DNA of 64,000 nucleotides, taken from positions 64,001 to 128,000 of the forward strand of contig OZ243956.1 in NCBI GenBank assembly GCA_965214405.1, read 5' to 3'. Below, piece after piece: positions 22,986-37,800 of this stretch. Each line of letters begins with the position of its first letter. The first letter of the stretch is position 1. The DNA comes from Trueperaceae bacterium (GTDB taxonomy: Bacteria; Deinococcota; Deinococci; Deinococcales; Trueperaceae). The position numbers and the translations under genes were made by a program. A model generated the notes under the pieces. The model was not told the origin of the DNA, did not search any database, and was given only the letters and a program-made list of their open reading frames with translations.

Positions 22986-23582
22986 TTAGTTGAGCTGCGT
23001 CTCGAGCGTGCGCGGTCCCGCCCTCTGTTTATCGACTGGGGGTCGCGCTTCGTCGGGGGTAATGATGGGAGCGAGAAGTGCGTGGACGGTCCTGAGCGCG
23101 TAGCTTTGCCTCTCGGGCAGCCATAAGAGGGGCAGGTCGGCCCCGCGAAAGGCGGCCTCGAGGCGCGCGCGCCGCTTTTCACTCGCTTGTTTATGTATCC
23201 CGGACGGGTGTTCGGACTCCAAATTGATGGCGCAAAGCACGGACAAGTCGCTCGCCCGGCAGACGACGTAGTCCACCTGACCCTGTAGAAGCCGCCGCGC
23301 ACGCCTCCCAAAGAGGCCGGGTCCGAGCTCTAAAACCTCGGCCACGCGCACCTTGCCGAAAATACGGTAGTTGCTCCCCAGGGCTTTGTCGAGCGCACCC
23401 AAAAGAGCACGTTCGGTGGGCGAAAAAAAGATCGTCCTCTGGACGCGTAGTCCCTTTGGCACCTTGGACGCTCTTGACAAGAGCGCCACAATACCGACGA
23501 CCAGAAGCAGGGCCACGACGAGCGCGGTGAGGAGCGCGGCGGGCAGAAAAAAGGAGGATTCGGCAAAGCGTGTAACGTCCAC
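22986..23582 (-). CDS. DUF2726 domain membrane-anchored protein
   Basis: N-terminal TM helix; FSPTERAL, IFGKVRVAEV, VDYVVC, AGLPLL-like motifs. Confidence 0.7.
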   Translation of the reverse strand: MDVTRFAESSFFLPAALLTALVVALLLVVGIVALLSRASKVPKGLRVQRTIFFSPTERALLGALDKALGSNYRIFGKVRVAEVLELGPGLFGRRARRLLQGQVDYVVCRASDLSVLCAINLESEHPSGIHKQASEKRRARLEAAFRGADLPLLWLPERQSYALRTVHALLAPIITPDEARPPVDKQRAGPRTLETQLN

Positions 23583-23866
23583 GGGAGTCCTTTCACGAAG
23601 AGAACGGAGCTGGCGTTAAGATGAAAGTTCTCTTAGAAAGAGTGTGCAACAGTCTCACGGTTTTGTCTGTGAGGAGTTAGCTGAGGCCTCCGTTCACGGC
23701 TTCACAAGCATGACTCACGCCTTGACCGTGCTAAGGTAGACGCCTACAAAAACTTGGAAGCTCCGTTACGGCTGGTTAACATGCTCGAGACCCCCTCACT
23801 ACCCTCTAATGCTCACACCACACCTGAGCAGAGCCTTCTTTGTGGCTCGTTTAAGTTGGCGGCCGC

Positions 23867-26800
23867 GTGAGCCGTACTCTTGGCAAGGCGCAACGGCTCA
23901 CCGAACTGCTCGAGCTTCTCAAGCTCAAAGCCTGGACGAGCCGCGAACTCGCGGAACGCTTCGGGGTGCCCATCCGCACGGTTCAGCGCGACCTAGACAC
24001 GTTACGCGAGAGCGGGCATGGGGTCGCAACCTCAGAGGATTTCCGCCACCGCCTCACGCCGACGGGTTCGTCGCTTAACGCCGTCGAAGGACTCGCAGTT
24101 CACGCGGCGGTAAGGCTCTTGTACCACCACTCACCTACCCAGAACCGGTATTACCGCTCGGCTTTGGAGAAGCTGGCGGCGCTGCTGCCCGAACCTGCCA
24201 GGGGAATCGCGGCGGCGAGTGCGCAAGACCTGAAAGTGCGCCCCGGTGACGACCGGACTTTGGAGTTGGTCGCGCGGGCCTGGTTCGAGGGCAAAGTTCT
24301 GCGGTTCAAGTACCTCGCCCCGGATAGTTTTGAACCTGCCTGGCGCGAGTTGGAAACATATCTGCTCGAGGTCAGCCGCACTAACTTGGCCCTTTACGCC
24401 ATCGGTCAGGAGCGCACGTTCAACCAGGTGCTCACCTTCAAATTGTCCCGTATGAGCGATGTTCGTGTTTCGGACGATGCCTACGCCATCCCTGAAAGCT
24501 TTGCGCCGAGCGAATACTTGAGCGCTGCTTGGGGCGTGATGGGTGGGCAAGGGGACAAGGTGGCTAAAGTGCGCTTGCGCTTTGAGCCCGAAGCCGCCTC
24601 CCGCATCAAAGAGGGCGGCTATCCCAATTTGAGGGTAGAGAGGGAACTAGCGGACGGCTCGCTCGAGGTCGAAATCAAAGCAGGCACCGACAACACGGGC
24701 TTTCCAAAAGAACTCCTCCCCTGGGTACAGAGCTGGGGGCCACGGGTCGATGTTCTTGCGCCCAAGGCGCTGCGCGAACGCTGGCTGAGCGAGGCCGGTG
24801 CCGTCGCGTTGAGGCACCCTCACTTAAAAACGAGGCTCGCGTCACTAGATGACGCACCCAAAGGACAGACTGAACCTATGACGAATCTTTCAGCGAAGGC
24901 GGCGGCCCTGTGGGCCAAGAGTGGTGAAGACGAGCAGGGCTATAGCCTCGTGGGACACTTGTTGGACGTGGCGGCGGTGGCGCACGCCCTGCTCGAGCGC
25001 GAACCCCCGCAGACCCTGCGGCTTTACGCGGAGGATGTGGGGCTCGAGCCCGGCGACGCTAAGAAATGGATAGCGGCACTGGCGGGCTTACACGACATCG
25101 GCAAGGCGACCCCGGCCTTTCAGCGGCAGTGGGAACCGGGACGGCTGGTGGTCGAGGCAGCGGGGCTTACGTTTAGCAAGGGCGACAAGGGCACCGCACA
25201 CGGAAAACTCTCGCAGAAAATCTTGCAAGACGAGCTCAAAATCTACGGTTTAGGTAAGAGGCTCGCCGCTCAAGTTGCCGACGCCGTAGGCGCACATCAC
25301 GGTCTGCGAACCGCGAAGGGCGACTTGTCAGACAACGTCGTTCCGCAACAAGACATGGGCAACAATGCGTGGCAAGAAACCCGGCAAGAGCTGCTAACCG
25401 AGTTTCTAAAGGCCGTAGAAGTCGTTCAAATCTCACCCCCGATCACCGCCGCACTCACGGGCCAGGGCTTTATCCGATTAGCAGGCTTGACCAGCTTTGC
25501 CGATTGGATTGGCTCGACAGTTGACTTTTTTCCTACCGACCGCAAAGTAGAGAATTTGAGAGAGCACTTTCTCGACTCGTTGCTAAGGGCGCGCAAGGCC
25601 CTGAACGCGATAGGCTGGGAGCGCCGCGAGCCTTTAGCGGCGGAACCTCGAGCCTTCAACACCATCTTTCCTTTTGAGCCCAACGGTCTTCAAAAGCAAA
25701 TCGTCAACCTTGTCGAGCAAACGCGTGAACCCTCTCTTCTCATCGTCGAAGCGCCGATGGGGGAAGGAAAAACGGAGGCTGCCTTCTACGCCCACGTCAC
25801 TTTGCAACGGCAGTTGGGGCACCGAGGCTTGTACGTGGCGCTGCCCACGCAGGCAACGGGTAACGCCATGTTTGAGCGCACCAAAAACCTTCTCAGCACC
25901 TTCGAGCGCGACACGCCACCCGACTTGCAGCTTTTACACGGCTCGAGCCTGCTCAACGACGCTTACGCCACCATCCAAATCAAGGATGTAGATGGAGTGG
26001 ACAACACAGAGAGCGAGGTGTGGGCCAGAACCTGGTTCACCAGCAAAAAGCGGGCGCTGCTTTCGGAAAACGGGGTGGGCACGGTTGACCAGGCGCTCCT
26101 CAGCGTTCTAAACATCAAACATCAATTTGTGCGCCTGTGGGGATTGGGTAACCGCACGGTTGTTTTGGATGAAGTCCACGCGTATGAGCTTTACACGAGC
26201 AAGCTCATTGAGCGCCTAGTCTGCTGGCTGCACGCGCTCGGCTCGTCGGTCATCATCATGAGCGCGACGCTGCCCACCGCCAAACGACTAGATTTAGTCA
26301 AAGCCTTTGGCGGCGGCGCGGCCGAGGAGCCCGTCTCTTACCCACGCATCACGCAGGTGCTGGGCGGAGAGACCAAGGAGGTTTCGTTCTCGGTGAGAGA
26401 GCAGAAGCCTATGAGCTTGAAAAGGGTCAGCCTAGATCTCGAGACGGTAGCAAACCTTCTCACAGGCTTGATGACGGACGGCGGTTGCTCGGTGGCTATT
26501 CTAAACACGGTGCAGCGGGCGCAAACTCTTTACAGCCTGTTTGGGGAGGGTGAAGGTCTTGAGGCCGGAAAGCGTTTACCCGACGGCACCGAGGTCTATC
26601 TGTTCCACGCCCGTTATCCGGCGGAGGAGCGGAAAAAGCGGGAGGAGGCGGTGCTGGGGAAGTTCGGCAAGGGCGGAGAGCGCCCAGCCAAGGCCATTCT
26701 CATCGCCACGCAGGTGGTTGAGCAGAGTTTAGACCTTGATTTTGACGTGATGGTGAGCGACTTAGCGCCCGTCGATTTGCTCTTGCAGCGTGCCGGACGG

Positions 26801-27556
26801 ATGCACCGCCACGAGCGCGAACGTCCCGCCGCCCACGCGTCGCCCGTCCTTTACGTGGCAGGGCTGACCGACGCCGAGACGCTACCGGATGTCAGCAGCG
26901 AATACTTCGATTGGGTTTACGAAGCGTTCACGCTTTACATGACGTGGTGGACCTTGGCTGATAAGGAAGTTATTGCGTTACCTGAAGACTTTGAGCCGCT
27001 TATCAAAGCCGTATACGGCGAAACCGATTTTACGGCGCTGCCGGATTTCGCCCGTGAGGTGGTTGAGCAAAGCCGCGCGGACCAGGAAGGAGAAGCCGAC
27101 ACCCACAAGCGAAAAGCTGTCAGCTCAGCTAACGTGATACCTCTGCCAAACATCTACCCGACCACCGACGGCGTCAGTTCGGTTGTCAAGAGCGAGGACG
27201 ACGAAGACCCCAGCCTTCACGAGCACTACCGGCCCGCGACGCGTCTGGGCGATCCCAGCGTCACGGTCATCCCCTTACATAAAAAGGATGACAAGCTTTA
27301 CCTCGAGCCCTCCTACGAAACCGAAATCGTGTTGAACAAGGAACCCTCATGGCAAGCGGCGAGAACCCTCTATCTGCAACACCTCAAGCTGAGCCGTAAA
27401 GGTCTTGTGTTCGAGCTTGTTAAATATCCAGTACCCGCTTGGCAGAAGCAACCGCTGCTGCGTTACTGCTTCCCGCTCACTTTTGAGGAGAGGGTGGCAG
27501 TGGTTGGGAAATTGACCCTTCGCTATGACGATGCGCTAGGGATTGTGTATGGGTAG
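23867..27556 (+). CDS. cas3: HTH-WYL-WCX regulator fused in frame to type I-E Cas3 (HD nuclease + SF2 helicase)
   Basis: aa 1-~320: ELAERFGVPIRTVQRDLDTL HTH, WYL core (LYAIG..TFKLSRM), WCX (VRLRF..WVQSWGPRVDVLAPKALRE). From M338: WAKS, HLLDV, LHDIGK, AHHG, ADWIGS, APMGEGKT, DEVH, SAT, QRAGRMHRH. Confidence 0.92.
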   Translation: MSRTLGKAQRLTELLELLKLKAWTSRELAERFGVPIRTVQRDLDTLRESGHGVATSEDFRHRLTPTGSSLNAVEGLAVHAAVRLLYHHSPTQNRYYRSALEKLAALLPEPARGIAAASAQDLKVRPGDDRTLELVARAWFEGKVLRFKYLAPDSFEPAWRELETYLLEVSRTNLALYAIGQERTFNQVLTFKLSRMSDVRVSDDAYAIPESFAPSEYLSAAWGVMGGQGDKVAKVRLRFEPEAASRIKEGGYPNLRVERELADGSLEVEIKAGTDNTGFPKELLPWVQSWGPRVDVLAPKALRERWLSEAGAVALRHPHLKTRLASLDDAPKGQTEPMTNLSAKAAALWAKSGEDEQGYSLVGHLLDVAAVAHALLEREPPQTLRLYAEDVGLEPGDAKKWIAALAGLHDIGKATPAFQRQWEPGRLVVEAAGLTFSKGDKGTAHGKLSQKILQDELKIYGLGKRLAAQVADAVGAHHGLRTAKGDLSDNVVPQQDMGNNAWQETRQELLTEFLKAVEVVQISPPITAALTGQGFIRLAGLTSFADWIGSTVDFFPTDRKVENLREHFLDSLLRARKALNAIGWERREPLAAEPRAFNTIFPFEPNGLQKQIVNLVEQTREPSLLIVEAPMGEGKTEAAFYAHVTLQRQLGHRGLYVALPTQATGNAMFERTKNLLSTFERDTPPDLQLLHGSSLLNDAYATIQIKDVDGVDNTESEVWARTWFTSKKRALLSENGVGTVDQALLSVLNIKHQFVRLWGLGNRTVVLDEVHAYELYTSKLIERLVCWLHALGSSVIIMSATLPTAKRLDLVKAFGGGAAEEPVSYPRITQVLGGETKEVSFSVREQKPMSLKRVSLDLETVANLLTGLMTDGGCSVAILNTVQRAQTLYSLFGEGEGLEAGKRLPDGTEVYLFHARYPAEERKKREEAVLGKFGKGGERPAKAILIATQVVEQSLDLDFDVMVSDLAPVDLLLQRAGRMHRHERERPAAHASPVLYVAGLTDAETLPDVSSEYFDWVYEAFTLYMTWWTLADKEVIALPEDFEPLIKAVYGETDFTALPDFAREVVEQSRADQEGEADTHKRKAVSSANVIPLPNIYPTTDGVSSVVKSEDDEDPSLHEHYRPATRLGDPSVTVIPLHKKDDKLYLEPSYETEIVLNKEPSWQAARTLYLQHLKLSRKGLVFELVKYPVPAWQKQPLLRYCFPLTFEERVAVVGKLTLRYDDALGIVYG
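24839..24871 (+). promoter_or_regulatory. Putative WYL-regulator site and internal promoter for cas3, inside the fusion linker
   Basis: Perfect palindrome GCGTCA-CTAGA-TGACGC, N10, CAGACT, then N6 and the in-frame ATG at 24878; near-identical copy upstream of cas8e. Confidence 0.6.
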
Positions 27557-27606
27557 CTTTACCCAGAAGCCTTGTTATGGTTGCTGTGCAAGCGCGGAAG
27601 TTAGCC

Positions 27607-27635
27607 TTGACTAACCTCCCTATTTCGACTACTAT
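27607..27635 (+). promoter_or_regulatory. Sigma70 promoter of the TA operon
   Basis: TTGACT-N17-TACTAT; SD GAGGA before GTG 27651. Confidence 0.65.
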
Positions 27636-27650
27636 GCTATCGAGGACGTA

Positions 27651-28010
27651 GTGAGCTCTACGCCGTACATCGTTTACGAGTACGAGGACGAAAATGGTTA
27701 CTCCGAGTTTCGGGAGTGGCGCAAGGCGCTTAGACGCTCCAATCCTAGAGCTTCTGCGAAAGTCGATTGGCTCATCGCGCTGCTCGAGGACAAAGGTACA
27801 ACACTGTCGTTTCCCTACGTCAGTCATATAGACGGGCCGATTTATGAACTGCGCGGTAAAACCGGACGTAACACCGTACGCATTTATTACTGGCAACAGG
27901 ACAAAGAGGTATTCATCGCCGCCGCGGGCGAGGTGAAGCAGCAGAACCAAGCTGACCGCAAGCTTATTAGGAAAGCTTTGGCAGCTTACGAGGAATATAA
28001 CAAGGAGTAA
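27651..28010 (+). CDS. RelE/HigB-like (Gp49-type) toxin
   Basis: GPIYELR...NTVRIYY motifs; toxin-first order before an XRE gene. Confidence 0.8.
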   Translation: MSSTPYIVYEYEDENGYSEFREWRKALRRSNPRASAKVDWLIALLEDKGTTLSFPYVSHIDGPIYELRGKTGRNTVRIYYWQQDKEVFIAAAGEVKQQNQADRKLIRKALAAYEEYNKE

Positions 28011-28014
28011 CGCC

Positions 28015-28410
28015 ATGCCAAAACGTCCCTTGAAACGAGCGAGCGACCTAAGCCAAGAGTTTTTGCAAGACCCCGGTTACGCTGCTCTATACCGTGAGGT
28101 CGCTAACGAAGAGATTGGAGCGGCGCTGCGCACAGTGCGCGAGGCTAAGGGGTTAAGCCAGCGTGAGGTTGCCGAGCGCATGGGCGTGACGCGTCCACGT
28201 GTGTCGCAGATTGAAAGTGTCGAGGGTACGGCGTTGGCGCTCGAGGTGCTCAGCCGCTACGCCCGCGCGGTAGGGTGCCGCCTCGACATCACTTTGAAAG
28301 ACGCCGAGACCAACCATGAGGTTGCTGCGCTGTTTGTACCAACGCTCGAGGCTACCGCGCCAAAACCGCCCGGCGCGGAGCCTTATGAAAAAGCAGAGGG
28401 GGTAGCCTGA
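28015..28410 (+). CDS. XRE-family HTH antitoxin (HigA-like)
   Basis: LRTVREAKGLSQREVAERMGVTRPRVSQIES HTH; 4 nt after the toxin stop. Confidence 0.85.
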   Translation: MPKRPLKRASDLSQEFLQDPGYAALYREVANEEIGAALRTVREAKGLSQREVAERMGVTRPRVSQIESVEGTALALEVLSRYARAVGCRLDITLKDAETNHEVAALFVPTLEATAPKPPGAEPYEKAEGVA

Positions 28411-28465
28411 AAGATAGTTCCGCACCACGTAGGCACAACGGTTATGGGTAGAATGAGTTTGAAAC

Positions 28466-28555
28466 ATTTTCCCTACACGCGTGGGGATGAACCTTAGTAA
28501 TTCCACCTGTGGACGTAATAGTGAATATCCTCCCCACACCAGTGGGGCTGCGGTT
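28466..28555 (+). ncRNA. CRISPR mini-array / crRNA-like regulatory RNA (two degenerate repeats + 32-nt spacer)
   Basis: psiR1 ATTTTCCCTACACGCGTGGGGATGAACCT (28466-28494), spacer TAGTAATTCCACCTGTGGACGTAATAGTGAAT (28495-28526), psiR2 ATCCTCCCCACACCAGTGGGGCTGCGGTT (28527-28555); same 29+32 period and hairpin as the main array. Confidence 0.88.
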
Positions 28556-28562
28556 GGTGGGT

Positions 28563-28623
28563 AAGTAGTAATTCCACCTGTGGATGTAAAGCCTTGACTC
28601 CGATACTGTCCCGTGTGTATAGT
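28563..28623 (+). promoter_or_regulatory. AAG PAM + partial protospacer overlapping a sigma70 promoter
   Basis: AAG 28563-28565; TAGTAATTCCACCTGTGGATGTAA (28566-28589) matches 23/24 of the spacer 5' part; TTGACT 28594-28599, N18, TATAGT 28618-28623. Confidence 0.82.
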
Positions 28624-28776
28624 GAAAAAGCGTGGCTGGGGCCTACCGCGAAATAGTCACCCCACCACGCCTCAAGGGACATGCCCTCTGAATCCGATTT
28701 TACCTTAGCTTTGGCACAAATTCAAAGGGCGTCCACTTTAACGTAGGGAGGTTTCCACCTCTCGGACGGGAGTAAC

Positions 28777-28962
28777 GTGTTAGACCTCGAGGACACCACC
28801 TACCAAGCGTTTAGGGACAGCCTGTATCAGGTTGACGAGCGAGACCGCGCCGTGCTGTGGGAGTTCTGGCCCCACTTTCAATCGGCTTTGAACTCTCGAC
28901 ATGGAGAGTGGCAGAAGCTGACGTTAACGGGCTCGCTCGATGACGACGATGTAGACCGTTAA
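28777..28962 (+). CDS. 61-aa acidic small protein, candidate CRISPR-repressed toxin
   Basis: GGGAG SD-like sequence before GTG; lies between the targeted promoter and a terminator; no family recognised. Confidence 0.5.
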   Translation: MLDLEDTTYQAFRDSLYQVDERDRAVLWEFWPHFQSALNSRHGEWQKLTLTGSLDDDDVDR

Positions 28963-28967
28963 CCGTG

Positions 28968-29001
28968 GTGAGGCGCATCCCGCGCCTCACTTCTTTATTT
29001 T
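28968..29001 (+). terminator. Rho-independent terminator
   Basis: GTGAGGCGC-ATCCC-GCGCCTCAC followed by TTCTTTATTTT. Confidence 0.85.
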
Positions 29002-29005
29002 GGCG

Positions 29006-29038
29006 ACGTCACTACATGACGCACCCCCCTCTTACACT
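29006..29038 (+). promoter_or_regulatory. Putative WYL-dependent promoter of the Cascade operon
   Basis: ACGTCA-CTACA-TGACGC, N10, TACACT; no canonical -35; SD AAAGGAGG before the cas8e ATG. Confidence 0.65.
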
Positions 29039-29058
29039 GCTTTTGAAAGGAGGCCGAG

Positions 29059-30555
29059 ATGTTTAACCTCATCCATGAACCTTGGCTGCGGGTCGAAAAC
29101 CCAGACGGCTCGCTAGGCCAGGACTCGCTAAAGGGGGTTTTATTAAACGCCCACCGCTACGCGCGGCTGGCCCACCCCTCCCCCGCCGTGCTCCCGGCGC
29201 TGCACCGCTTTCTACTGGCGGTGCTGTACCGGGTACTGGACGAACCACGCAGTACCGATGAAGGGGTTGATTTGTTCAAACAGGGTCGGTTTCCGGCGGA
29301 GCGCGTCGGTGCTTATCTCGAGCACTGGCAAGACCGCTTCGACCTGTTCCACCCTGAAAGGCCCTTTTACCAGGTGCCGGACTCGGAAGATAAGGTGTCA
29401 GGGGTCGCCCGGCTCGCAGCCGAACTCGCCAGCGGCACGAACAAACTCCTCTTCGACCACACCGCGGAGGCCGACCCGCCGGAGTTGACGCACGCCGAAA
29501 TCGCGCAACTGCTCGTGACCCGGCAGATGACCGCCATCCCCGAAGGCGCGGGCTACAGCCCCAGCCCGGCGGGCGGCGCGGCGTTCGTGCTGCCGCAGGG
29601 TCGCAACCTGTTCGAGACGCTGGTGCTCAACCTCGTTCCTTATTCTGAGGAGGAGAACGAGGACGACGCGCCCATTTGGGAAGGGGCTACGCCGAAGAGC
29701 GCGGCGGTAAAAGCCGCCAAGCCGCGCGGCTCGAGAGGGCTTACCGAACGTTACACCTGGCTAACGCGCATCGTTAAGTTGCAAGAACCCGAGGGTGACG
29801 CGCCTGTGTCGGCGCTGCATTATGCGGCAGGCATCAAGTTCGATGGCGGCGACAGCCCCGACCCCATGTTGGCTTACCGCAAAGATGAAAAGCGCGGGCT
29901 CCTCCCGGTATCTTTCAACAAGTACAAGGCGTTCTGGCGGGACTTTCAGGCCCTAATACCCAATCCCGACAGCGGAAGCTACTTAGCGCCCCAGACGGTA
30001 AAACACGCTCGCAACATATATGAAGAATTAGAGCGCACCGACCCCCTCACCTTACTGGTTTCCGGCCTGAGCAATGACAAGGCCAAGGTCGTGCTGTGGC
30101 GTACCGAACAGTTCAACGTGCCGCAGGTCCTCCTTCAAAATCCGGGGGCTTACGCCGAGTTGACGCGGCTGCTCGAGTACGCCGACAACGGCGGGCGCAC
30201 CCTCTACGGCGCGACGCAGCGCTTGGCGGAAAAGTTGCTGAGCATTGGCGAACGTAAACCCGACCCCGCCGACGTTCGCAACCTGGCCGCGAGTTTTCCC
30301 GCCAGTATGCACTACTGGAGCAGGCTCGAGACCCGCTTTCCCGAACTGCTGGAGCGCTTTGAGACTCAGACCTTTGATGAGCGGTTCAGTTGGTGGTTAG
30401 GGCAAATCACCCTTGTAACGCGCGAAGCCTGGGAGCTTGCCTTAAAGAGCGCCGGGGAAAACGAGCGCGCCTGGCGGGCCGGGGCCGAGGCGAGCAAGGT
30501 CATCAACACCCACCTCAAACGCCTGCGCGAACAGACAGCCGAGCCAGCCCCATAG
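29059..30555 (+). CDS. cas8e: Type I-E Cascade large subunit Cas8e (CasA/Cse1)
   Basis: FNLIHEPWL, LHRFLLAVL, DRFDLFHPERPFYQ, GRNLFETLVLN, DPM, AFWRDF. Confidence 0.93.
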   Translation: MFNLIHEPWLRVENPDGSLGQDSLKGVLLNAHRYARLAHPSPAVLPALHRFLLAVLYRVLDEPRSTDEGVDLFKQGRFPAERVGAYLEHWQDRFDLFHPERPFYQVPDSEDKVSGVARLAAELASGTNKLLFDHTAEADPPELTHAEIAQLLVTRQMTAIPEGAGYSPSPAGGAAFVLPQGRNLFETLVLNLVPYSEEENEDDAPIWEGATPKSAAVKAAKPRGSRGLTERYTWLTRIVKLQEPEGDAPVSALHYAAGIKFDGGDSPDPMLAYRKDEKRGLLPVSFNKYKAFWRDFQALIPNPDSGSYLAPQTVKHARNIYEELERTDPLTLLVSGLSNDKAKVVLWRTEQFNVPQVLLQNPGAYAELTRLLEYADNGGRTLYGATQRLAEKLLSIGERKPDPADVRNLAASFPASMHYWSRLETRFPELLERFETQTFDERFSWWLGQITLVTREAWELALKSAGENERAWRAGAEASKVINTHLKRLREQTAEPAP

Positions 30556-30563
30556 GAGGCATC

Positions 30564-31154
30564 ATGACAGAAACCGTGACAAACAGCACGACAAACACGC
30601 CCTCGAGCAAACAAGCAGATGTAGCCGAACGCTTCATCAGTCACCTGGACAAACTCAATCCAGCCAAAACGCCGGGAGCCAAGCGGCAACACTTAGCCGA
30701 GCTTAGAAAAAGTCTCAGCTTCGACTTAGGCACGCACGTTCCGGCCTTTCCTTATGTTGAGCCATTTGTAGCAACGCTGGACGAGAGGACAGGCTACTGG
30801 CGACGCGCTATGTTCTACCTCGTCGCGGGGCTCTACGCCTCTCATCCAGAGTCCGCCTCTCAGGGGGGTTTCGGCAAGGCGATGGCGGTTCTTAGTCACA
30901 GACGCGAGAGCGGGAGCCTGGAGAAACGTTTTCTCGCGCTCTTGGCTGCGGAAGAAGCAGGGCAGCTCGTCTACCACTTGCGCCAACTCGTCAGCCTGCT
31001 CAAGGCCGAGGGTGTCGGCCTAAACTACGCAACGCTGCTCCGCGACCTGTTCGGGTGGCAACACCAAGACCGCTATATTCAGCGCCGCTGGGCGGGGCAG
31101 TATTACGGCTTTACCTCCGATGCTCCCGACACCTCCGCCACAAAAGAAACCTAG
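30564..31154 (+). CDS. cse2: Type I-E small subunit Cas11 (CasB/Cse2)
   Basis: [52 protein letters not shown]. Confidence 0.92.
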
Positions 31155-31165
31155 AAAGGATTCCT

Positions 31166-32323
31166 ATGAAAGCACTTTTAGAAATTCACGCCCTACAAAA
31201 CTTCGCCCCCAGCAACTTGAACCGCGACGACACCGGCAGCCCCAAAGATTGCGAGTTCGGCGGCTACCGCCGCGCCCGCATCAGTTCGCAAAGCCTAAAG
31301 CGGGCCATGCGGACCTACGTTCGCGCCGAGAAGCTTCTTGAGGATGACGCGTTGGCTGTGCGTACCAAGCGCGTAACCGCCGAACTGGTTGGGCAACTTA
31401 AAAAGAAGGGTCGGGACGAGGCCGAAGCTGGCAAGGTGGTCGAACTCGCGTTGGCGGGCCTGTCGCTCAGCGTAGACGAGGGCAAGACGCAGTACCTTCT
31501 CTACCTTGGCAAGAGCGAAATTCGGGACATGGCGAACAGCATTGACGCGTATTGGGACGAACTACTCGAAGCTGTCCCCGCAGAGGATGACAAGAAAAAA
31601 TCAAAAAAGGACGCAAAGGGCAACGTTCCAAAAGACCTCGTTGCCGCTTTGGAAAAAAGCTTAGACGGCGGCAAAGCCGTGGACTTAGCCCTCTTCGGGC
31701 GGATGCTCGCCGACCTGCCCGAGAAAAATCGGGACGCCGCCTGTCAGGTGGCCCACGCCATCAGCACCAACGCGGTGCAACGCGAGTTCGACTTCTATAC
31801 CGCCGTCGACGACCTCAAGCCGGAGGACAACGCGGGCGCGGACATGCTCGGCACGGTTGAATTTAACAGCGCCTGCTATTACCGCTACATTGCGCTCGAC
31901 TTAGAGAAGCTAGCCGCCAACTTGCAGGGCGACGGTGAGCTTTTAGAAAAAGGTCTTAGGGCTTTTCTCGAGGCGAGCTACTTCGCCGCGCCCTCGGGCA
32001 AACAGAACAGCTTTGCGGCCCACAACCCGCCGGGTTTTTTTGCCGTGAGCGTGCGCGCTAATGCCGCGCCGCGCAACCTCGCCAACGCCTTTGAGAAGCC
32101 GGTGCACCCGGACCGGGAGCGGTCCCTTACCGAGGCCTCGGTAGCGCGTTTAGACGAGCAGTGGGCTGCTTTTGACAAGGCGCTCGGCACGAGCGACGCA
32201 AACGAGATTGCGGTGCTCAAGCTTACGGGAAACGTGGCGCACTTGGCGACGAACGTACGTGAGAGCCTAAAGGACGTCGTCACCTCGAGCGTCGCGGCAG
32301 CCCAACGTGCTGTGGGTGCGTAA
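31166..32323 (+). CDS. cas7: Type I-E backbone Cas7 (CasC/Cse4)
   Basis: [59 protein letters not shown]. Confidence 0.95.
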
Positions 32324-32988
32324 TGCCGACGCTTTTATTACGTCTCGCCGGACCCATGCAAGCCTGGGGCACGAGCAGCCGGTTCGAGCAGCGGGACACG
32401 CACCTAGAGCCCAGTAAAAGCGGGGTGGTAGGGCTCTTGGCCGCCGCTTTGGGGCGCGACCGCAGCGAGGACGTGAGCGACTTGGCGGCCCTCAAAATGG
32501 GTGTGCGGGTGGACAAAGAAGGCGTCTTAAAACGCGATTACCACACCGCGCAAGAGATTGTTCAGGCGGACGGTAAGCTGAACAGCAACCGGAACATGCG
32601 CAACTCGGTGAGCGAGCGCTTTTATTTGGCGGACGCGGTTTTTTTGGTCGGGCTCGAGCATCCTGATAAAGCCTTTCTGACCGCTACCCACCAAGCCCTC
32701 AAAACCCCCCGCTGGCCGCTCTTCTTGGGTCGTAAGTCTTTCGTGCCCAGCCCCGGCGTCTATCTGCCTGGTGGACTGAGGGACGAACACCTCGAGACGG
32801 CACTCACGACCTTTCCACCCCTTCATCCCGCAGCGTCGGAGCGCGCGACCCTACGCTTCGCCACTGAGGACTCGCAGGGCGCGCAACTCCGCGCCGACCA
32901 GCCGCTCGGCTCGTTTTCAGCGCGCAGTTTTGGACAGCGCCGCGTGCGCGTTGAAAGCCGCTCCAACCCCTTCAAGGACGCCACATGA
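32323..32988 (+). CDS. cas5: Type I-E Cas5 (CasD)
   Basis: LLLRLAGPMQAWG, PSKSGVVGLLAAALG, DYHT, YLADA, LFLGRKS. Confidence 0.95.
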   Translation: MPTLLLRLAGPMQAWGTSSRFEQRDTHLEPSKSGVVGLLAAALGRDRSEDVSDLAALKMGVRVDKEGVLKRDYHTAQEIVQADGKLNSNRNMRNSVSERFYLADAVFLVGLEHPDKAFLTATHQALKTPRWPLFLGRKSFVPSPGVYLPGGLRDEHLETALTTFPPLHPAASERATLRFATEDSQGAQLRADQPLGSFSARSFGQRRVRVESRSNPFKDAT

Positions 32989-33593
32989 GCCTCCACCTCT
33001 CCAAACTCACGCCGAACCTGCGCAGCGCCAAAGCCCGCCGCGACCTGCAAAACCCTTACGACCTGCACCGCACCCTGAGCCGGGGCGTGGCGCGGGAGGA
33101 TGAGCGGCTGTTGTGGCGGGTTGACGGAACGAACCAGCCCAGCATTTTGGTACAAACCCTTCACCAACCCGACTGGTCTTACCTCGTCGAGGATGTGCCC
33201 CCCGGTTACCTGAAGGAATCTCCGGCGTCCAAATCCGTAGACCTCGCTTTTGTAAAAGGTCAGACCCTGACGTTTCGCTTGAGGGCAAATCCTACGGTAA
33301 AACGGACGCTCTCGGGCAAGAAAAAGCGTCTGGCTCTTTACGAGGTGGAGGAGCAGCTTGGCTGGCTCCGGCGTAAGGCGGCGGGGGGCGGCTTTAACGT
33401 CTTGTCCGCCACCTCACTGGGTCAGGAAACGCTCGAGGCTAAGAGAAACGCTCAAACCGTGACGCTTCACGCCGTCACCTTTGAAGGGCGGTTGATTGTG
33501 GTGGACCCGCCAACGTTTTTGGCAACGCTCAAAACGGGCCTCGGCTCCGCCAAGGGCCTCGGCATGGGCTTACTTTCCATTGCGAGGGCCTGA
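32985..33593 (+). CDS. cas6e: Type I-E Cas6e (CasE/Cse3) crRNA processing nuclease
   Basis: YDLHRTL, FRLRANPT, Gly-rich loop GLGSAKGLGMGLL. Confidence 0.93.
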   Translation: MSLHLSKLTPNLRSAKARRDLQNPYDLHRTLSRGVAREDERLLWRVDGTNQPSILVQTLHQPDWSYLVEDVPPGYLKESPASKSVDLAFVKGQTLTFRLRANPTVKRTLSGKKKRLALYEVEEQLGWLRRKAAGGGFNVLSATSLGQETLEAKRNAQTVTLHAVTFEGRLIVVDPPTFLATLKTGLGSAKGLGMGLLSIARA

Positions 33594-33594
33594 C

Positions 33595-34578
33595 ATGGCA
33601 AGTCTACGCAACCTCCGCGAACTCCCCAAATTCCGCGACGGCCTTTCCTACCTCTACATCGAGCGCGGGCGCGTCGAACAGGACGCCAAGGCCATCGCCT
33701 GGTACGGCGAAGAAGGCAAGGTGAGCGTGCCCGCCGCCGCTTTGGGCGTGCTCATGCTCGGCCCCGGCACAAGCATCACCCACGAGGCGGTCAAGGCTCT
33801 GGCCGACAACGGCTGCTTAATCAACTGGGTGGGCGAGGCGGGCGTGCGCTTTTACGCGGGCGGCGCGGGCGAAACGAGGAGCAGCGCCAACCTCATGCGC
33901 CAAGCGGCGTGGTGGGCGGACCCCGGTAAACACCTTCAGGTGGTGCGGCGCATGTACACCATGCGCTTCGATGAGCGCTTGTCGCCCACGCTGACCCTCG
34001 AGCAAATCCGCGGCAAAGAGGGCGTGCGGGTGCGCACCGTCTACGCCCAGGCAAGCCGGGAGTGGGGTGTGCCCTGGCGCGGGCGCTCCTACCGCCGCGG
34101 GCGCTGGGGCGACGCCGACCCCGTCAACCGCGCGCTCTCCGCCGGGGCGGCTTGCCTTTACGGCGTCTGCCACACCGCCATCCTCTCGGCGGGCTACTCC
34201 CCCGCGCTCGGCTTCGTCCACACCGGCAAGCAGCTCTCGTTCGTTTACGATATTGCCGACCTCTACAAAACCGAGGTGCTCGTCCCCGCCGCCTTTAGGC
34301 TCGTGGCCGAATCCGAAGAAGGAATTGACAGCCGCGTCAGACATCATCTTAGAGACACAATGCGAGAGTCGAGGCTGCTCGAGCGCGTGGTCGACGACCT
34401 CCACAGCCTCTTCAGCAACGACGCCGGGAAGGGCGAACGCTTCGCCGCGGACGGCGCGGCGCCCGGTGAACTGTGGGACCCGGAGGGCAACGTGGCCGGG
34501 GGGGTGAGTTATGGTCGTGATGACGCTGGAGAAGGTGCCGACGAGTCTGCGTGGGGAGCTGAGCCGCTGGATGATTGA
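33595..34578 (+). CDS. cas1: Type I-E Cas1
   Basis: LMLGPGTSITHEA, WVGEAGVRFY, IRGKEG, SPALGFVH, SFVYDIADLYK. Confidence 0.95.
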   Translation: MASLRNLRELPKFRDGLSYLYIERGRVEQDAKAIAWYGEEGKVSVPAAALGVLMLGPGTSITHEAVKALADNGCLINWVGEAGVRFYAGGAGETRSSANLMRQAAWWADPGKHLQVVRRMYTMRFDERLSPTLTLEQIRGKEGVRVRTVYAQASREWGVPWRGRSYRRGRWGDADPVNRALSAGAACLYGVCHTAILSAGYSPALGFVHTGKQLSFVYDIADLYKTEVLVPAAFRLVAESEEGIDSRVRHHLRDTMRESRLLERVVDDLHSLFSNDAGKGERFAADGAAPGELWDPEGNVAGGVSYGRDDAGEGADESAWGAEPLDD

Positions 34579-34864
34579 GGTTTCTACGGGCGTGTTCGTC
34601 GGCAAACTGAGCGCCCTGGTGCGCGACCTGCTGTGGGAAAAGGTGAGCGAGAACAAACGCGCGGGGCGCTGCTGTCAGGTCTACCGCACCAACAATGAAC
34701 AGGGCTTCGCTATTCGGATGGTGGGCGATTCGGAAAGGAGCGTGATCGACTTAGACGGTGTACAATTGGTCGCGGTGAAAAACGCGACCTGGGAACGGAT
34801 GTTTGTCGAGTCTGCGGAGGACCATGACAACCCAACAGGAGACATAGAGGCCCCTGAAGCTTAG
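34511..34864 (+). CDS. cas2: Type I-E Cas2
   Basis: MVVMTLEKVPTSLRGELSRWMIEVSTGVFVG, NNEQGF, DLDGVQL. Confidence 0.93.
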   Translation: MVVMTLEKVPTSLRGELSRWMIEVSTGVFVGKLSALVRDLLWEKVSENKRAGRCCQVYRTNNEQGFAIRMVGDSERSVIDLDGVQLVAVKNATWERMFVESAEDHDNPTGDIEAPEA

Positions 34865-34884
34865 TTTTTGCGTCTGGGTCTAGT

Positions 34885-37800
34885 CTATTCCCCACGCAGG
34901 TGGGGATGAACCGGGCAGGTTCTGGGTAGCCTCCACCCAGCCCGCCTATTCCCCACGCAGGTGGGGATGAACCGGAGAAGCGCCCCCTTCCACCCGCCTC
35001 TTGAGCCTATTCCCCACGCAGGTGGGGATGAACCGTGCGTGCGCAGCGCCTCGATCTGGGGACGCTCCTATTCCCCACGCAGGTGGGGATGAACCGCGAC
35101 CCCGGCGAGCGCTCGAGCGCGCACATCACTATTCCCCACGCAGGTGGGGATGAACCGACGCCCGGATTTTCTCCCCTCTCCAGCGAGCCCTATTCCCCAC
35201 GCAGGTGGGGATGAACCGGAGCCTCTACACACGTGCATCGCCCGCTGCACTATTCCCCACGCAGGTGGGGATGAACCAGCGCCCGTCTTCACTTTTTTGC
35301 TTGAGGTCCCCTATTCCCCACGCAGGTGGGGATGAACCGGCGGTGCTTTTCGAGGGCTCGGACGTGGAGTGCTATTCCCCACGCAGGTGGGGATGAACCG
35401 TCCACGTCGCAGGCGCTGAGGGGCTGGCCGTCCTATTCCCCACGCAGGTGGGGATGAACCGGTGCCGGGGGAGACCTTGACGCGCTTGTCTCCCTATTCC
35501 CCACGCAGGTGGGGATGAACCGGGAGCGCTGGCACATCCCGCAAGCGGGCGTGGCTATTCCCCACGCAGGTGGGGATGAACCGCCATCAGCAAGTTCGGC
35601 GCGGGGGTGGGGGACCTATTCCCCACGCAGGTGGGGATGAACCGGTGTCGCGCTGCAAGCGGTAGCGTACGGTCACTATTCCCCACGCAGGTGGGGATGA
35701 ACCGTCATAAACAAACAAGTCATAGTTGACGATCAACTATTCCCCACGCAGGTGGGGATGAACCGTTCCTGCCCGACGAGTGGTTCCCTTACGCGGACTA
35801 TTCCCCACGCAGGTGGGGATGAACCGCCTCGAGCAGCCCCAACCACCAGAACTCCCCCTATTCCCCACGCAGGTGGGGATGAACCGCCGGGCGAGGCGGT
35901 CACGCTTAAATCAGGAGACTATTCCCCACGCAGGTGGGGATGAACCGGTAAACGCACCCAAATTGATGCCGACGACGCCCTATTCCCCACGCAGGTGGGG
36001 ATGAACCGTCGGCCTTGAAAAAGTCGATGACGCCCCCGCCTATTCCCCACGCAGGTGGGGATGAACCCACCTCGGCCAGTGCGTTTTGACTAGCTGAGGC
36101 CTATTCCCCACGCAGGTGGGGATGAACCGCCAACCGCTTCACCATCCACGTGATGGCCGCGCTATTCCCCACGCAGGTGGGGATGAACCGCCGTCCGCGT
36201 AGTCCCAGCTCTCCACCACCCCCTATTCCCCACGCAGGTGGGGATGAACCGGGCACCCGCTTTTCCTCCCCCGCGAAGACCGCCTATTCCCCACGCAGGT
36301 GGGGATGAACCGGGGTCGCCCGAACTGGACGACCCCTCCGCGATCTATTCCCCACGCAGGTGGGGATGAACCGGGGCAACCATGAAAAAGCGCGTCATCG
36401 GCGCGCTATTCCCCACGCAGGTGGGGATGAACCGGGTTTGGCTGAACTTTCTGGGGTGCGTGAGGACTATTCCCCACGCAGGTGGGGATGAACCGCAAGC
36501 CATCCTTATGCGGAATGTGAACAACCCCTATTCCCCACGCAGGTGGGGATGAACCGTCCACACTCACATGTACATCCCCCTGCCAACCCTATTCCCCACG
36601 CAGGTGGGGATGAACCGTGAGGGCGCGGCTTTCCAGCACGCCCGCCATACTATTCCCCACGCAGGTGGGGATGAACCGCCGCCACTTCCGCCTCTTGCCT
36701 CTTGAGGGCTCTATTCCCCACGCAGGTGGGGATGAACCGCGTCACGCCGCCCTCTCTCGTCACCAAGGTCACTATTCCCCACGCAGGTGGGGATGAACCG
36801 AACTTTGTCTCGCAAAGAACACAGTGATAACCTATTCCCCACGCAGGTGGGGATGAACCGCATGGACAACATTGACACGCAAGTACAGACTTCTATTCCC
36901 CACGCAGGTGGGGATGAACCGGCCATGCTAGACAAGGGTGCAACCGAGATACCTATTCCCCACGCAGGTGGGGATGAACCGAGCCGCCGCCGCCCGCGAA
37001 AGTGCTAATGACCCTATTCCCCACGCAGGTGGGGATGAACCGTCTCTTTAAGGCCTAGCGCGAAGAGGTCCGGCCTATTCCCCACGCAGGTGGGGATGAA
37101 CCGTAACCGTCGCTTGCTTGATAGTACGGGATACCCTATTCCCCACGCAGGTGGGGATGAACCGGTCACGGCGCTTTCGTATGAGTCTATTAACGCCTAT
37201 TCCCCACGCAGGTGGGGATGAACCGGTACTCCTCGACGCCCTAGCCCACGCTGGGGCCTATTCCCCACGCAGGTGGGGATGAACCGGCCCCTCCATCGCC
37301 GCCGCTAAGCGGTTCCCACTATTCCCCACGCAGGTGGGGATGAACCGTATCAGGCGCTCACTGGGTCCATAGAAGAACCTATTCCCCACGCAGGTGGGGA
37401 TGAACCGCTGTCGCACTGACATAAACTTTAGTAGTAGCCTATTCCCCACGCAGGTGGGGATGAACCGTTCAAACAGACTCTCGGTGTTTCTCTGTGACGC
37501 TATTCCCCACGCAGGTGGGGATGAACCGTTTTCGGGCGGGGTAGACAATGGCCATCCCGACTATTCCCCACGCAGGTGGGGATGAACCGGAGCGTTAAAT
37601 ACGACGAAACGGGAGAACCCCCTATTCCCCACGCAGGTGGGGATGAACCGCGATAAGTGAAGTGATAAGTGACCCAAAAAGACTATTCCCCACGCAGGTG
37701 GGGATGAACCGATACTACGCCCGGAAATTGAACGTGACGACCTCTATTCCCCACGCAGGTGGGGATGAACCGTAGAGGCCCTGAAGATTTCCTGTCAGCT

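Follow-up and report, generated by a model that had tools for sequence, protein, structure and literature searches.

How a type I-E CRISPR-Cas locus is switched on, and why one palindrome should stand both inside a gene that fuses a regulator to Cas3 and in front of cas8e, is the question raised by a 64,000-nucleotide stretch of DNA from a Trueperaceae bacterium (hereafter the window), which comprises positions 64001-128000 of a genome consisting of one contig of 4,498,326 base pairs (bp) with 60.6% G+C. The original prediction, made from the letters of this stretch, held that two nearly identical inverted repeats are bound by the WYL domain encoded in the same locus. Those of its parts that are open to computation were all borne out. 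We find it reasonably probable that both sites are operators of two WYL-regulator-dependent promoters of one type I-E CRISPR-Cas locus. Judging from sequence comparison, the neighbouring WYL regulator most likely binds these sites to switch CRISPR immunity on.

Site 1 (CGTCACTAGATGACGCACCC, 24840-24859) and site 2 (CGTCACTACATGACGCACCC, 29007-29026) are identical at 19 of 20 bases, as the original prediction had it, and each 20-mer contains the inverted repeat CGTCA-N5-TGACG. The predicted operators, to which no strand is assigned, span 24840-24854 (CGTCA-CTAGA-TGACG, within codons 325-330 of the fusion gene) and 29007-29021 (CGTCA-CTACA-TGACG). On the plus strand, the sequence TGACGC at 24850-24855 and 29017-29022 is followed after exactly 10 nucleotides (nt) by a −10-like hexamer CAGACT (24866-24871) and a −10 hexamer TACACT (29033-29038), respectively, such that each hexamer stands 11 nt past its palindrome; this spacing, too, could be read in the sequence just as it had been claimed. 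A sigma-70 consensus scan of 23400-29200 found no canonical −35/−10 pair at either site, in agreement with the original prediction, which had seen no canonical −35 there, and the hexamer at the −35 position of site 2, 17 nt upstream of TACACT, has 0/6 bases in common with TTGACA. The module at each promoter reads as a 15-bp inverted repeat (CGWCA-N5-TGWCG), an 11-nt spacer and a −10 hexamer, without a −35. With the transcript start set 7 nt past the hexamer, the palindrome falls at about −37 to −23 and its promoter-proximal half-site at −28 to −23.

When up to three mismatches are allowed, the 20-mer has two matches in the window and none in each of 100 shuffles. The sequence CGTCACTANATGACG occurs exactly only at the two window sites among the 4,498,326 bp of the genome, with a further one-mismatch site at genome position 4420930. 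Because the bare core is not significant in the window by itself (four loose cores with at most one mismatch, against 2.17 expected), we place weight on the 19/20 identity and on the comparative data.

The nearest relatives available for this comparison are Trueperaceae metagenome assemblies, and the farther ones belong to Thermus, Meiothermus, Calidithermus, other Thermaceae and Deinococcus. We found the WYL module in 32 of 61 related genomes searched, and the gene order WYL, cas3, cas8e ... cas2 in 16 fetched loci. All close type I-E Cas3 homologues (at least 44% identity) whose upstream side lies on the contig adjoin a WYL gene (16/16), a 17th being on a truncated contig, and no I-E locus free of a WYL gene was found within the order that could serve as a control.

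In a first set of 17 oriented I-E loci (304.7 kb), to which the window belongs, there are 20 exact occurrences of CGWCANNNNNTGWCG, and 18 of them lie directly 5' of cas3 or cas8e. We then added named loci and took the best core per promoter window, defined as the 140 nt before cas3 and the 200 nt before cas8e. Exact cores were present before cas3 in 18 of 41 loci and one-mismatch cores in 5, and before cas8e in 17 and 2 of 35 loci, compared with 9 exact cores and 23 with one mismatch over the 576,914 positions that make up the remaining DNA of these loci. A strict set, with tighter criteria for true I-E Cas3 and a core with at most one mismatch, retained 43 sites, located before cas3 in 24/36 and before cas8e in 19/35 loci (one genome, G033, contributes a single cas3-operator row to these counts, and no result hangs on it alone). 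Within Deinococcota, the module precedes both genes in WYL-linked I-E loci of Trueperaceae, of Thermus, including T. thermophilus HB8, and of other Thermaceae.

The hexamer, which the search did not impose, emerged in these 43 sites: counted from the first base of the palindrome, 36 sites have T at position 27, 42 have A at position 28 and 39 have T at position 32, and the hexamer takes the form TAnnnT in 31 and nAnnnT in 7. Across loci, half-sites and distances were kept, whereas spacers and flanks were free to diverge. The central base of the two half-sites varies independently, being A with T in 25 of the 43 sites and A/A or T/T in 18, which argues for a protein reading a degenerate half-site TGWCG and against a hairpin.

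Comparison with a related genome, G032, showed the same pattern at closer range. The footprint of site 2 and its hexamer (29007-29038) is identical at 32/32 positions and the intergenic segment 28963-29058 at 96.9%, set against 79.5% at third codon positions of cas8e, 57% across 28411-28776 and 44% upstream of the WYL gene. For site 1 together with its hexamer the identity is 87.5%, compared with 58.8% at third positions of the WYL part. Only two bases differ between the two genomes in palindrome 1, both of them in the N5 spacer (CTAGA to GTAAA, which changes L-D to V-N), and the confinement of these changes to the spacer, with both half-sites intact, points to selection on the DNA.

No such site precedes the WYL genes themselves. 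When 310 nt upstream of each WYL gene of these loci were scanned, an exact core was found in 0/29 and a one-mismatch core in 1/29, and upstream of the window's WYL module (23400-23880) the best match has 3 mismatches. We therefore rejected autoregulation of the WYL gene through an operator upstream of it. As a separate observation, the palindrome recurs in Meiothermus, Calidithermus and some Deinococcales farther upstream of the WYL gene, at a distance of about 2-2.5 kb and with a hexamer of the CAnnCT type (L118:4477-4710, L141:4967, L091:4926, L088:4768, L138:4977 and L051:50), in one case (L118) about 127 nt past a CRISPR array. These far-upstream palindromes precede short open reading frames (ORFs) of 44-90 amino acids (aa), four of which end glycine-rich (for example ...AGDDPGGGSGG).

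The two sites are also present in a genetically tractable organism. In 10.9 kb of plasmid pTT27 of T. thermophilus HB8 we found only two cores, one before cas3 (CGACAGGAGGTGTCG-N11-TAAGGT-N6-ATG, with the ATG at pTT27 position 192124) and one before casA (CGTCAGCGGATGTCG-N11-TAGCCT, 23 nt ahead of the casA start at 194936), and the gene annotated there as 'transcriptional regulator' (TTHB186 in older tags) overlaps cas3 at its end by ATGA. Induction of the T. thermophilus cas operons by CRP and by phage has reportedly been observed, which could bear on the start sites. In published tables, TTHB186-187 and TTHB188-194 are listed as two operons (PMC7662524), and the order WYL, cas3HD, cas8e is listed for several Thermus species (PMC5529391).

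The position of the hexamer relative to the start codon suggests how each transcript begins. At the cas3 sites of the strict set, the first ATG or GTG lies exactly 6 nt past the hexamer in 19 of 24 cases and 7 nt past it in 3, and in the window the arrangement is CAGACT-N6-ATG, with the Cas3 ATG at 24878, a distance within the 5-7 nt that mark a leaderless gene. For 4,894 long ORFs of the window's own genome, TAnnnT peaks at distances of 5, 6 and 7 nt ahead of the start (153, 268 and 122 occurrences, versus about 25-75 elsewhere), and Shine-Dalgarno-like words peak 4-7 nt before ORF starts; a −10 at 6 nt is thus the ordinary leaderless arrangement of this organism, and the cas3 transcript is predicted to be a leaderless mRNA beginning at the A of ATG 24878. 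Leaderless mRNAs are given as 60% of the total in the report on Deinococcus deserti (PMC4007540). Among public sequencing runs, two from one study matched the DNA of the window and no RNA run did, an outcome that has no bearing on expression. For cas8e we predict an mRNA that starts at about 29045 and carries a short leader with a ribosome-binding site, the Shine-Dalgarno sequence AAGGAGG standing at 29048-29054 and the ATG at 29059.

Site 1 lies inside the ORF 23867-27556, at codons 325-331 (A-S-L-D-D-A-P) and 18 nt ahead of the Met338 codon, the ATG at 24878. This ORF encodes 1229 aa on the plus strand and joins a WYL regulator module to a complete Cas3. The module, assigned from Pfam and the translation, occupies residues 1-337 (23867-24877), with HTH_11 at residues 10-51 (E = 7e-7), WYL at 131-201 (6e-9) and WCX at 234-313 (5e-12). 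The Cas3 portion runs from Met338 (24878-27556) through an HD nuclease, a superfamily 2 (SF2) helicase and C-terminal domains (Pfam Cas3_HD at 349-555, DEAD, Cas3-like_C_2 and Cas3_C), and Met338 aligns with the first residue of stand-alone Cas3 in relatives.

In relatives the module is mostly a gene of its own, of about 320-340 aa, and in most of them the cas3 operator and −10 fall within the last codons of this separate WYL gene, in the cas3 frame. The expectation that one operator would lie inside the regulator's own coding sequence was thus borne out, and the arrangement is the rule among relatives, not an oddity of this genome. The C-terminal tails of the WYL proteins that run over the operator are not conserved as protein. 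The WYL stop codon is supplied by the promoter itself in several loci, being the TAG or TAA that opens the −10 hexamer in L043, L046, L047 and L048, or a TGA in the proximal half-site in L042 and L051. In two further loci it is the codon right after the hexamer (CAG GAT TAA ACC ATG in L079 and CAG GAT TGA ACC ATG in L124), and at the same place the window reads CAG ACT GAA CCT ATG. Because the hexamer and the N6 together make 12 nt, the WYL frame is the cas3 frame in these loci, and where L079 and L124 have their TAA or TGA codon, one base change would suffice to join the two genes. This genome and its nearest relatives no longer have the stop codon, so that the operator lies in the WYL-Cas3 linker, and a single lost stop codon would explain the fusion seen here.

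The fusion is not confined to the window. G032 has the same one, 78% identical in the module and 88% in Cas3, and we found the WYL module joined to Cas3 in 15 proteins of 1029-1264 aa, whose named sources are Meiothermus, Calidithermus or Deinococcota/Deinococcales. WYL-Cas3 fusions in some type I systems were noted in 2014 by Makarova et al., in the part of that work available to us (PMC4012209). A third fusion from the Trueperaceae family, in G031 (L045/L080), encodes its HTH part in a frame other than that of the remaining WYL module, shows one TAA within the Cas3 match, and may be decaying; its two operators have a common variant of their own, CCAAATTTGACGCAA. A second type of WYL fusion, 1069-1083 aa long, occurs in Meiothermus and Calidithermus (L052, L053, L086, L089, L097, L116 and L117), with a helicase about 28-30% identical to the window's Cas3 and publicly annotated as Cas3''. 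No exact core was seen in those second-type loci that were scanned (L086, L089, L097, L116 and L117).

The regulator itself has a winged helix-turn-helix (wHTH)-WYL-WCX architecture, the three Pfam domains lying within residues 10-313, and the DNA contact would be that of the HTH domain, not of the WYL domain itself. The solved sequences nearest to the module are WYL proteins, including 8tp8 (named DriD; E = 6.9e-6) and chains of 7p5x and 9fnd, which we take to be PafBC, and the segment tfKLSRMsdvrv of the module aligns with sWRLDRMSDLKV of 9cu3_B, the best-matching solved WYL-domain chain. A structural model of two copies of the module scored 0.84, against 0.00 for the best of 3 controls, with runs agreeing in at least 76% of contacts and a partner pLDDT (predicted local distance difference test) of at least 81. 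A score of 0.84 was reached by 20 of 30 proteins solved as same-chain pairs and by 1 of 23 solved as single chains, counts that hold only roughly here because our own alignment was used, and since similar dimers have already been solved, the pass may reflect likeness only.

Scanning the whole genome, we found 10 exact cores, and only 3 of them are followed at N11 by [TC]AnnnT, namely those at cas3, at cas8e and at position 3992931. All 3 adjoin WYL-domain genes, so that the motif, contrary to what would have spoken against the original prediction, proved neither common nor unlinked to WYL genes. The remaining cores (208258, 232580, 371306, 488586, 1224849, 2522912 and 4430756) lack a −10-like hexamer at the N11 distance, whichever strand is read, and we treated them as chance. 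The third composite site, 3992931-3992962 (outside the window; L157:2146-2177), reads CGTCAAGCCCTGACG-N11-TACACT and is flanked on one side by a divergent HTH_11-WYL-WCX gene and on the other by a gene of the DinB family (3993004-3993513). Its spacer and flank (AGCCC...GGGAAT) differ from those common to the window's two cas sites (CTA[G/C]A...GCACCC). Across the 61 related genomes, the composite pattern of core, N11 and TAnnnT yielded 50 matches, versus 5 for a reversed control, and many of the matches outside cas loci have the DinB-type flank TGACGGGAAT. Sites with the TGACGGGAAT flank also recur in Deinococcus and other relatives. On the basis of the three sites of this genome and the composite pattern in relatives, this class of palindrome appears to track WYL regulators in the order, with flanks and spacers that differ between targets.

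From these observations we chart a mechanism in which a homodimer of the locus's own wHTH-WYL-WCX module would sit on the palindrome and, once its WYL domain is loaded with ligand, would recruit or adapt the housekeeping RNA polymerase to promoters without a −35. The proximal half-site lies where the HTH of mycobacterial PafB reads its −26 element, in nearly the same sequence and with the same N10, and by analogy with PafBC, DriD and CapW the ligand may be single-stranded DNA. From the cas3 promoter, transcription would then begin at the A of ATG 24878 and yield a cas3 mRNA without a leader, and the promoter internal to the fusion could still supply free Cas3 of 892 aa. The cas8e promoter would give a cas8e-cse2-cas7-cas5-cas6e-cas1-cas2 transcript from about 29045, probably including the abutting CRISPR array. 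A fuller version of this scheme, which we put forward tentatively and consider possible but rather doubtful, is that a homodimeric, cas-encoded WYL sensor in Deinococcota uses PafBC-like promoter reprogramming to switch on the whole I-E system (cas3, Cascade, adaptation genes and a co-transcribed array), with a constitutive WYL-Cas3 isoform that senses single-stranded DNA driving both leaderless free Cas3, from inside its own frame, and Cascade, such that one lost stop codon would have created a two-isoform feed-forward circuit.

Several observations weigh against an activator encoded in the locus. The hexamer before cas3 in the window is CAGACT, not TAnnnT, and this promoter may therefore be weak or decaying inside the fusion; a hexamer with C in first position appears to be tolerated in unfused loci, as it is also present in L079 and L124. 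The core is missing or diverged in 12 of 36 cas3 and 16 of 35 cas8e promoters, mostly in Meiothermus and Calidithermus, also in one genome of family f5 and in Deinococcus. Some of the Meiothermus and Calidithermus misses have a diverged TGACA-N5-TGACA followed by N11 and a −10-like hexamer, with the start codon 6-9 nt past the hexamer in 3 of 4. The loci are kin, and the counts thus overstate independence. PafBC, moreover, is a heterodimer and places only one HTH on DNA; the present site, in contrast, is a full palindrome. Finally, because the genome has 6 WYL-domain ORFs and the DinB-side operator has the same half-sites, a paralogue might bind the cas sites.

The main rival, given that CapW and BrxR have been described as repressors, keeps the operator and the WYL protein and reverses the sign, with a dimer on −37 to −23 blocking polymerase until single-stranded DNA or an infection signal releases it. 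We hold this to be unlikely, even though WYL regulators beside CBASS and BREX systems are described in this role in the sources consulted (PMC9122588, PMC11662680, PMC9122601) and the site overlaps the core promoter, where a protein at −37 to −23 could equally shut polymerase out; both points add to the case against activation. Neither window site, however, offers a canonical −35/−10 pair to occlude, the −35 position ahead of TACACT being without a single match to TTGACA, and the distance to the −10 is fixed and the same as for the activator PafBC. A CRISPR-linked WYL protein of Synechocystis, sll7009, is said to be a negative regulator, which would favour repression. Repressors of this family usually autoregulate, and the operator is absent upstream of the WYL gene (0/29 exact), which counts against it, as does the presence among the closest solved sequences of the activator DriD (8tp8), next to the presumed PafBC chains of 7p5x and 9fnd.

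A genuine operator with a different reader seems to us quite improbable. Under this explanation one of the five other WYL-domain proteins, such as the DinB-linked, SiwR-like one, would act as a global damage regulator, or a CRP/FNR-type protein would bind. In its favour stand the six WYL ORFs of the genome and the occurrence of the same half-sites, with N11 to TACACT, at the DinB/WYL paralogue locus, along with two published cases, in which the global WYL activator DdaA drives CRISPR-Cas and restriction-modification genes in Acinetobacter (PMC12392091) and expression of HB8 TTHB186-194 changed in a TTHB099 mutant (PMC7662524), as far as the consulted parts of these reports go. Yet the close I-E Cas3 homologues adjoin a WYL gene without exception (16/16), and the spacer and flank bases are common to the two cas sites of one genome, unlike those of the DinB site. 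TTHB186-194 is also reportedly CRP-dependent, which would favour a reader of the CRP type; against it, the N5 spacer does not fit the consensus CRP site TGTGA-N6-TCACA. The XRE/HigA-like protein encoded at 28015 was considered as a binder as well and rejected, its gene being absent from most operator-bearing loci. Least of all do we favour the explanation that no protein is involved, and that the similarity of the sites goes back to a local duplication or the inverted repeat functions as a hairpin in RNA or DNA, which we regard as extremely improbable. An 8-mer, CCTCACTT, does stand at the same offset upstream of both window sites, and the repeat could form a 5-bp stem, but the position of the module is conserved across families while spacers and flanks diverge. 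The A/A or T/T central pairs in 18 of the 43 sites would break the stem, and on these unpaired central bases we rejected a hairpin function; the stretch upstream of site 1, in addition, folds no better than shuffles (z = −0.05). An activating operator read by the WYL module of the locus stays the favoured explanation.

The rest of the locus, all of it on the plus strand, is a complete type I-E set by Pfam, comprising cas3, cas8e, cse2, cas7, cas5, cas6e, cas1 and cas2 together with a repeat array. Downstream of the fusion gene lie cas8e (29059-30555), cse2 (ORF 30390-31154), cas7 (31055-32323), cas5 (32323-32988), cas6e (32985-33593), cas1 (33496-34578) and cas2 (34511-34864), where the true starts of cse2, cas7 and cas1 may be further in. 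The CRISPR array extends from 34885 to about 39655 with a 29-nt repeat, CTATTCCCCACGCAGGTGGGGATGAACCG, and a period of 61. It begins 20 nt past the cas2 stop codon (34864-34885), with its repeats oriented like the cas genes and no room for a separate leader; its transcription may start at the cas8e promoter, together with the cas genes, or at a promoter within cas2.

Between cas3 and cas8e are inserted a Gp49/HigB-like gene (27651-28010) and an HTH_3 (XRE) gene (28015-28410), both assigned by Pfam, with a canonical promoter-like site found ahead of the pair by the sigma-70 scan (27607-27635). The pair is also present in G032, at 95% and 89% protein identity, above that of the flanking cas genes, and is missing from most relatives that keep the operator, which places it outside the conserved module. 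In one locus, L040, a small gene pair of another kind apparently separates the WYL gene from cas3. In the window, the XRE gene is followed by a stretch of poor conservation that holds a 61-aa ORF, and then by a strong intrinsic-terminator-like hairpin with a T-rich tail (28967-29001; hairpin 28967-28991), which has a 10-bp stem with 7 G-C pairs and a fold of −22.1 kcal/mol (z = −4.18). Site 2 begins 6 nt past this tail, and the terminator-like element would end upstream transcription just ahead of operator 2. A degenerate terminator upstream of site 1 was considered and rejected, as the fold there is no better than that of shuffles (the z of −0.05 given above). The two copies of CCTCACTT, at 24817-24824 and 28985-28992 (an offset of 23 nt), may be chance or a trace of local duplication; the copy at site 2 is the 3' arm of the terminator, and the copy at site 1 codes for H-P-H-L of the extended WYL tail.

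WYL proteins were predicted as regulators of CRISPR-Cas systems in 2014, and annotations of Thermus genomes routinely show a WYL gene next to type I-E cas3. The model offered here gives this association a form that is precise to the base, conserved and falsifiable: two promoters that share one 15-bp operator, a fixed spacing to the −10 equal to that of PafBC, and a leaderless cas3. The same sites are present in T. thermophilus HB8, so that the model is directly testable there. It would also explain how WYL-Cas3 fusions originate, since the last codons of the regulator are the cas3 promoter and are in the cas3 frame, with the promoter being kept inside the coding sequence. If the fuller scheme given above is true, promoter reprogramming of the PafBC kind is not an actinobacterial speciality. 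What the comparative sequence evidence supports is a conserved, locus-specific example of WYL-regulator promoters with PafBC-like spacing at type I-E CRISPR-Cas loci.

Among the closest characterized systems is PafBC, whose promoters lack a −35 and follow the consensus tGTCgg(N10)tA(N3)T, with PafB reading the −26 element at −23 to −28 (PMC8635444) and PafC contacting sigma domain 4 (PMC8635444, PMC11804915), according to the sections of these reports consulted. The PafBC promoter form quoted in the original prediction is thus in print, and both window sites fit its spacing, as TGACGC-N10-CAGACT and TGACGC-N10-TACACT. The literal TGTCGG-N10-TAnnnT is present in several Thermus and other Thermaceae relatives. 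The likeness extends to TGTCGG or TGWCG[G/C] lying exactly 10 nt before TAnnnT, at −28 to −23 and without a −35, and to a regulator with wHTH-WYL-WCX architecture, which in the case of PafBC is pre-made and activated by single-stranded DNA (PMC8635444, PMC11804915). Yet the window does not encode a PafBC system: its regulator gene is single and its site two-fold symmetric, which implies a homodimer with both HTHs on DNA, whereas PafBC is described as a heterodimer with one HTH on the DNA and the other on sigma domain 4. PafBC, in addition, belongs to Actinobacteria and a DNA-damage regulon, and the present sites belong to Deinococcota and to cas genes.

Homodimeric WYL activators have been described elsewhere. 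SiwR of M. smegmatis, as reported in the available part of its description, is one whose binding site, an imperfect palindrome, falls between the −35 and −10 positions of the DinB-like genes next to it, and which needs the '−26 region' (PMC10693628). A DinB and WYL gene pair with a cas-type palindrome is likewise present in the window's genome; the SiwR palindrome differs in having 19 bp and DinB-like targets, with no CRISPR link in the sections of that report consulted (PMC10693628). DriD of Caulobacter crescentus, which is among the nearest solved sequences (8tp8), resembles the proposed regulator as a homodimeric WYL activator responsive to single-stranded DNA (PMC9186387, PMC10853764, PMC12340889), and it occupies a 20-bp pseudo-palindrome over a poor −35 at a fixed distance to the −10 (PMC12340889). 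Its 20-bp site is centred on the −35, whereas the 15 bp here are centred near −30, and its described targets are SOS-independent damage genes.

Other WYL regulators are linked to defence systems. DdaA, a global WYL activator of Acinetobacter and other Moraxellaceae, has its motif in CRISPR-Cas (I-F) and restriction-modification promoters, and its loss weakens interference, in the account available (PMC12392091). It is encoded elsewhere in the genome, whereas here the regulator lies in the cas locus and is fused to Cas3, and its authors state that sigma adaptation of the PafBC type may not be used (PMC12392091). CapW of CBASS and BrxR of BREX are, like the proposed regulator, wHTH-WYL-WCX dimers encoded beside a defence system with a palindrome in its promoter. 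They differ in being described as repressors in the portions of the reports consulted (PMC9122588, PMC11662680, PMC9122601); here the promoters lack a −35 and the regulator's own promoter lacks the site. A further counterpart is TTHB186 with TTHB187-194 of T. thermophilus HB8, which has the order WYL-cas3-cas8e... and the same two operators; a literature search that did not cover subscription journals found no account of this operator, and no promoter geometry or mode of action described for TTHB186 or for WYL-Cas3 fusions. Taken together with the shared spacing and architecture, these comparisons suggest by analogy that the two promoters of the window would work like the activator-dependent promoters of PafBC and DriD.

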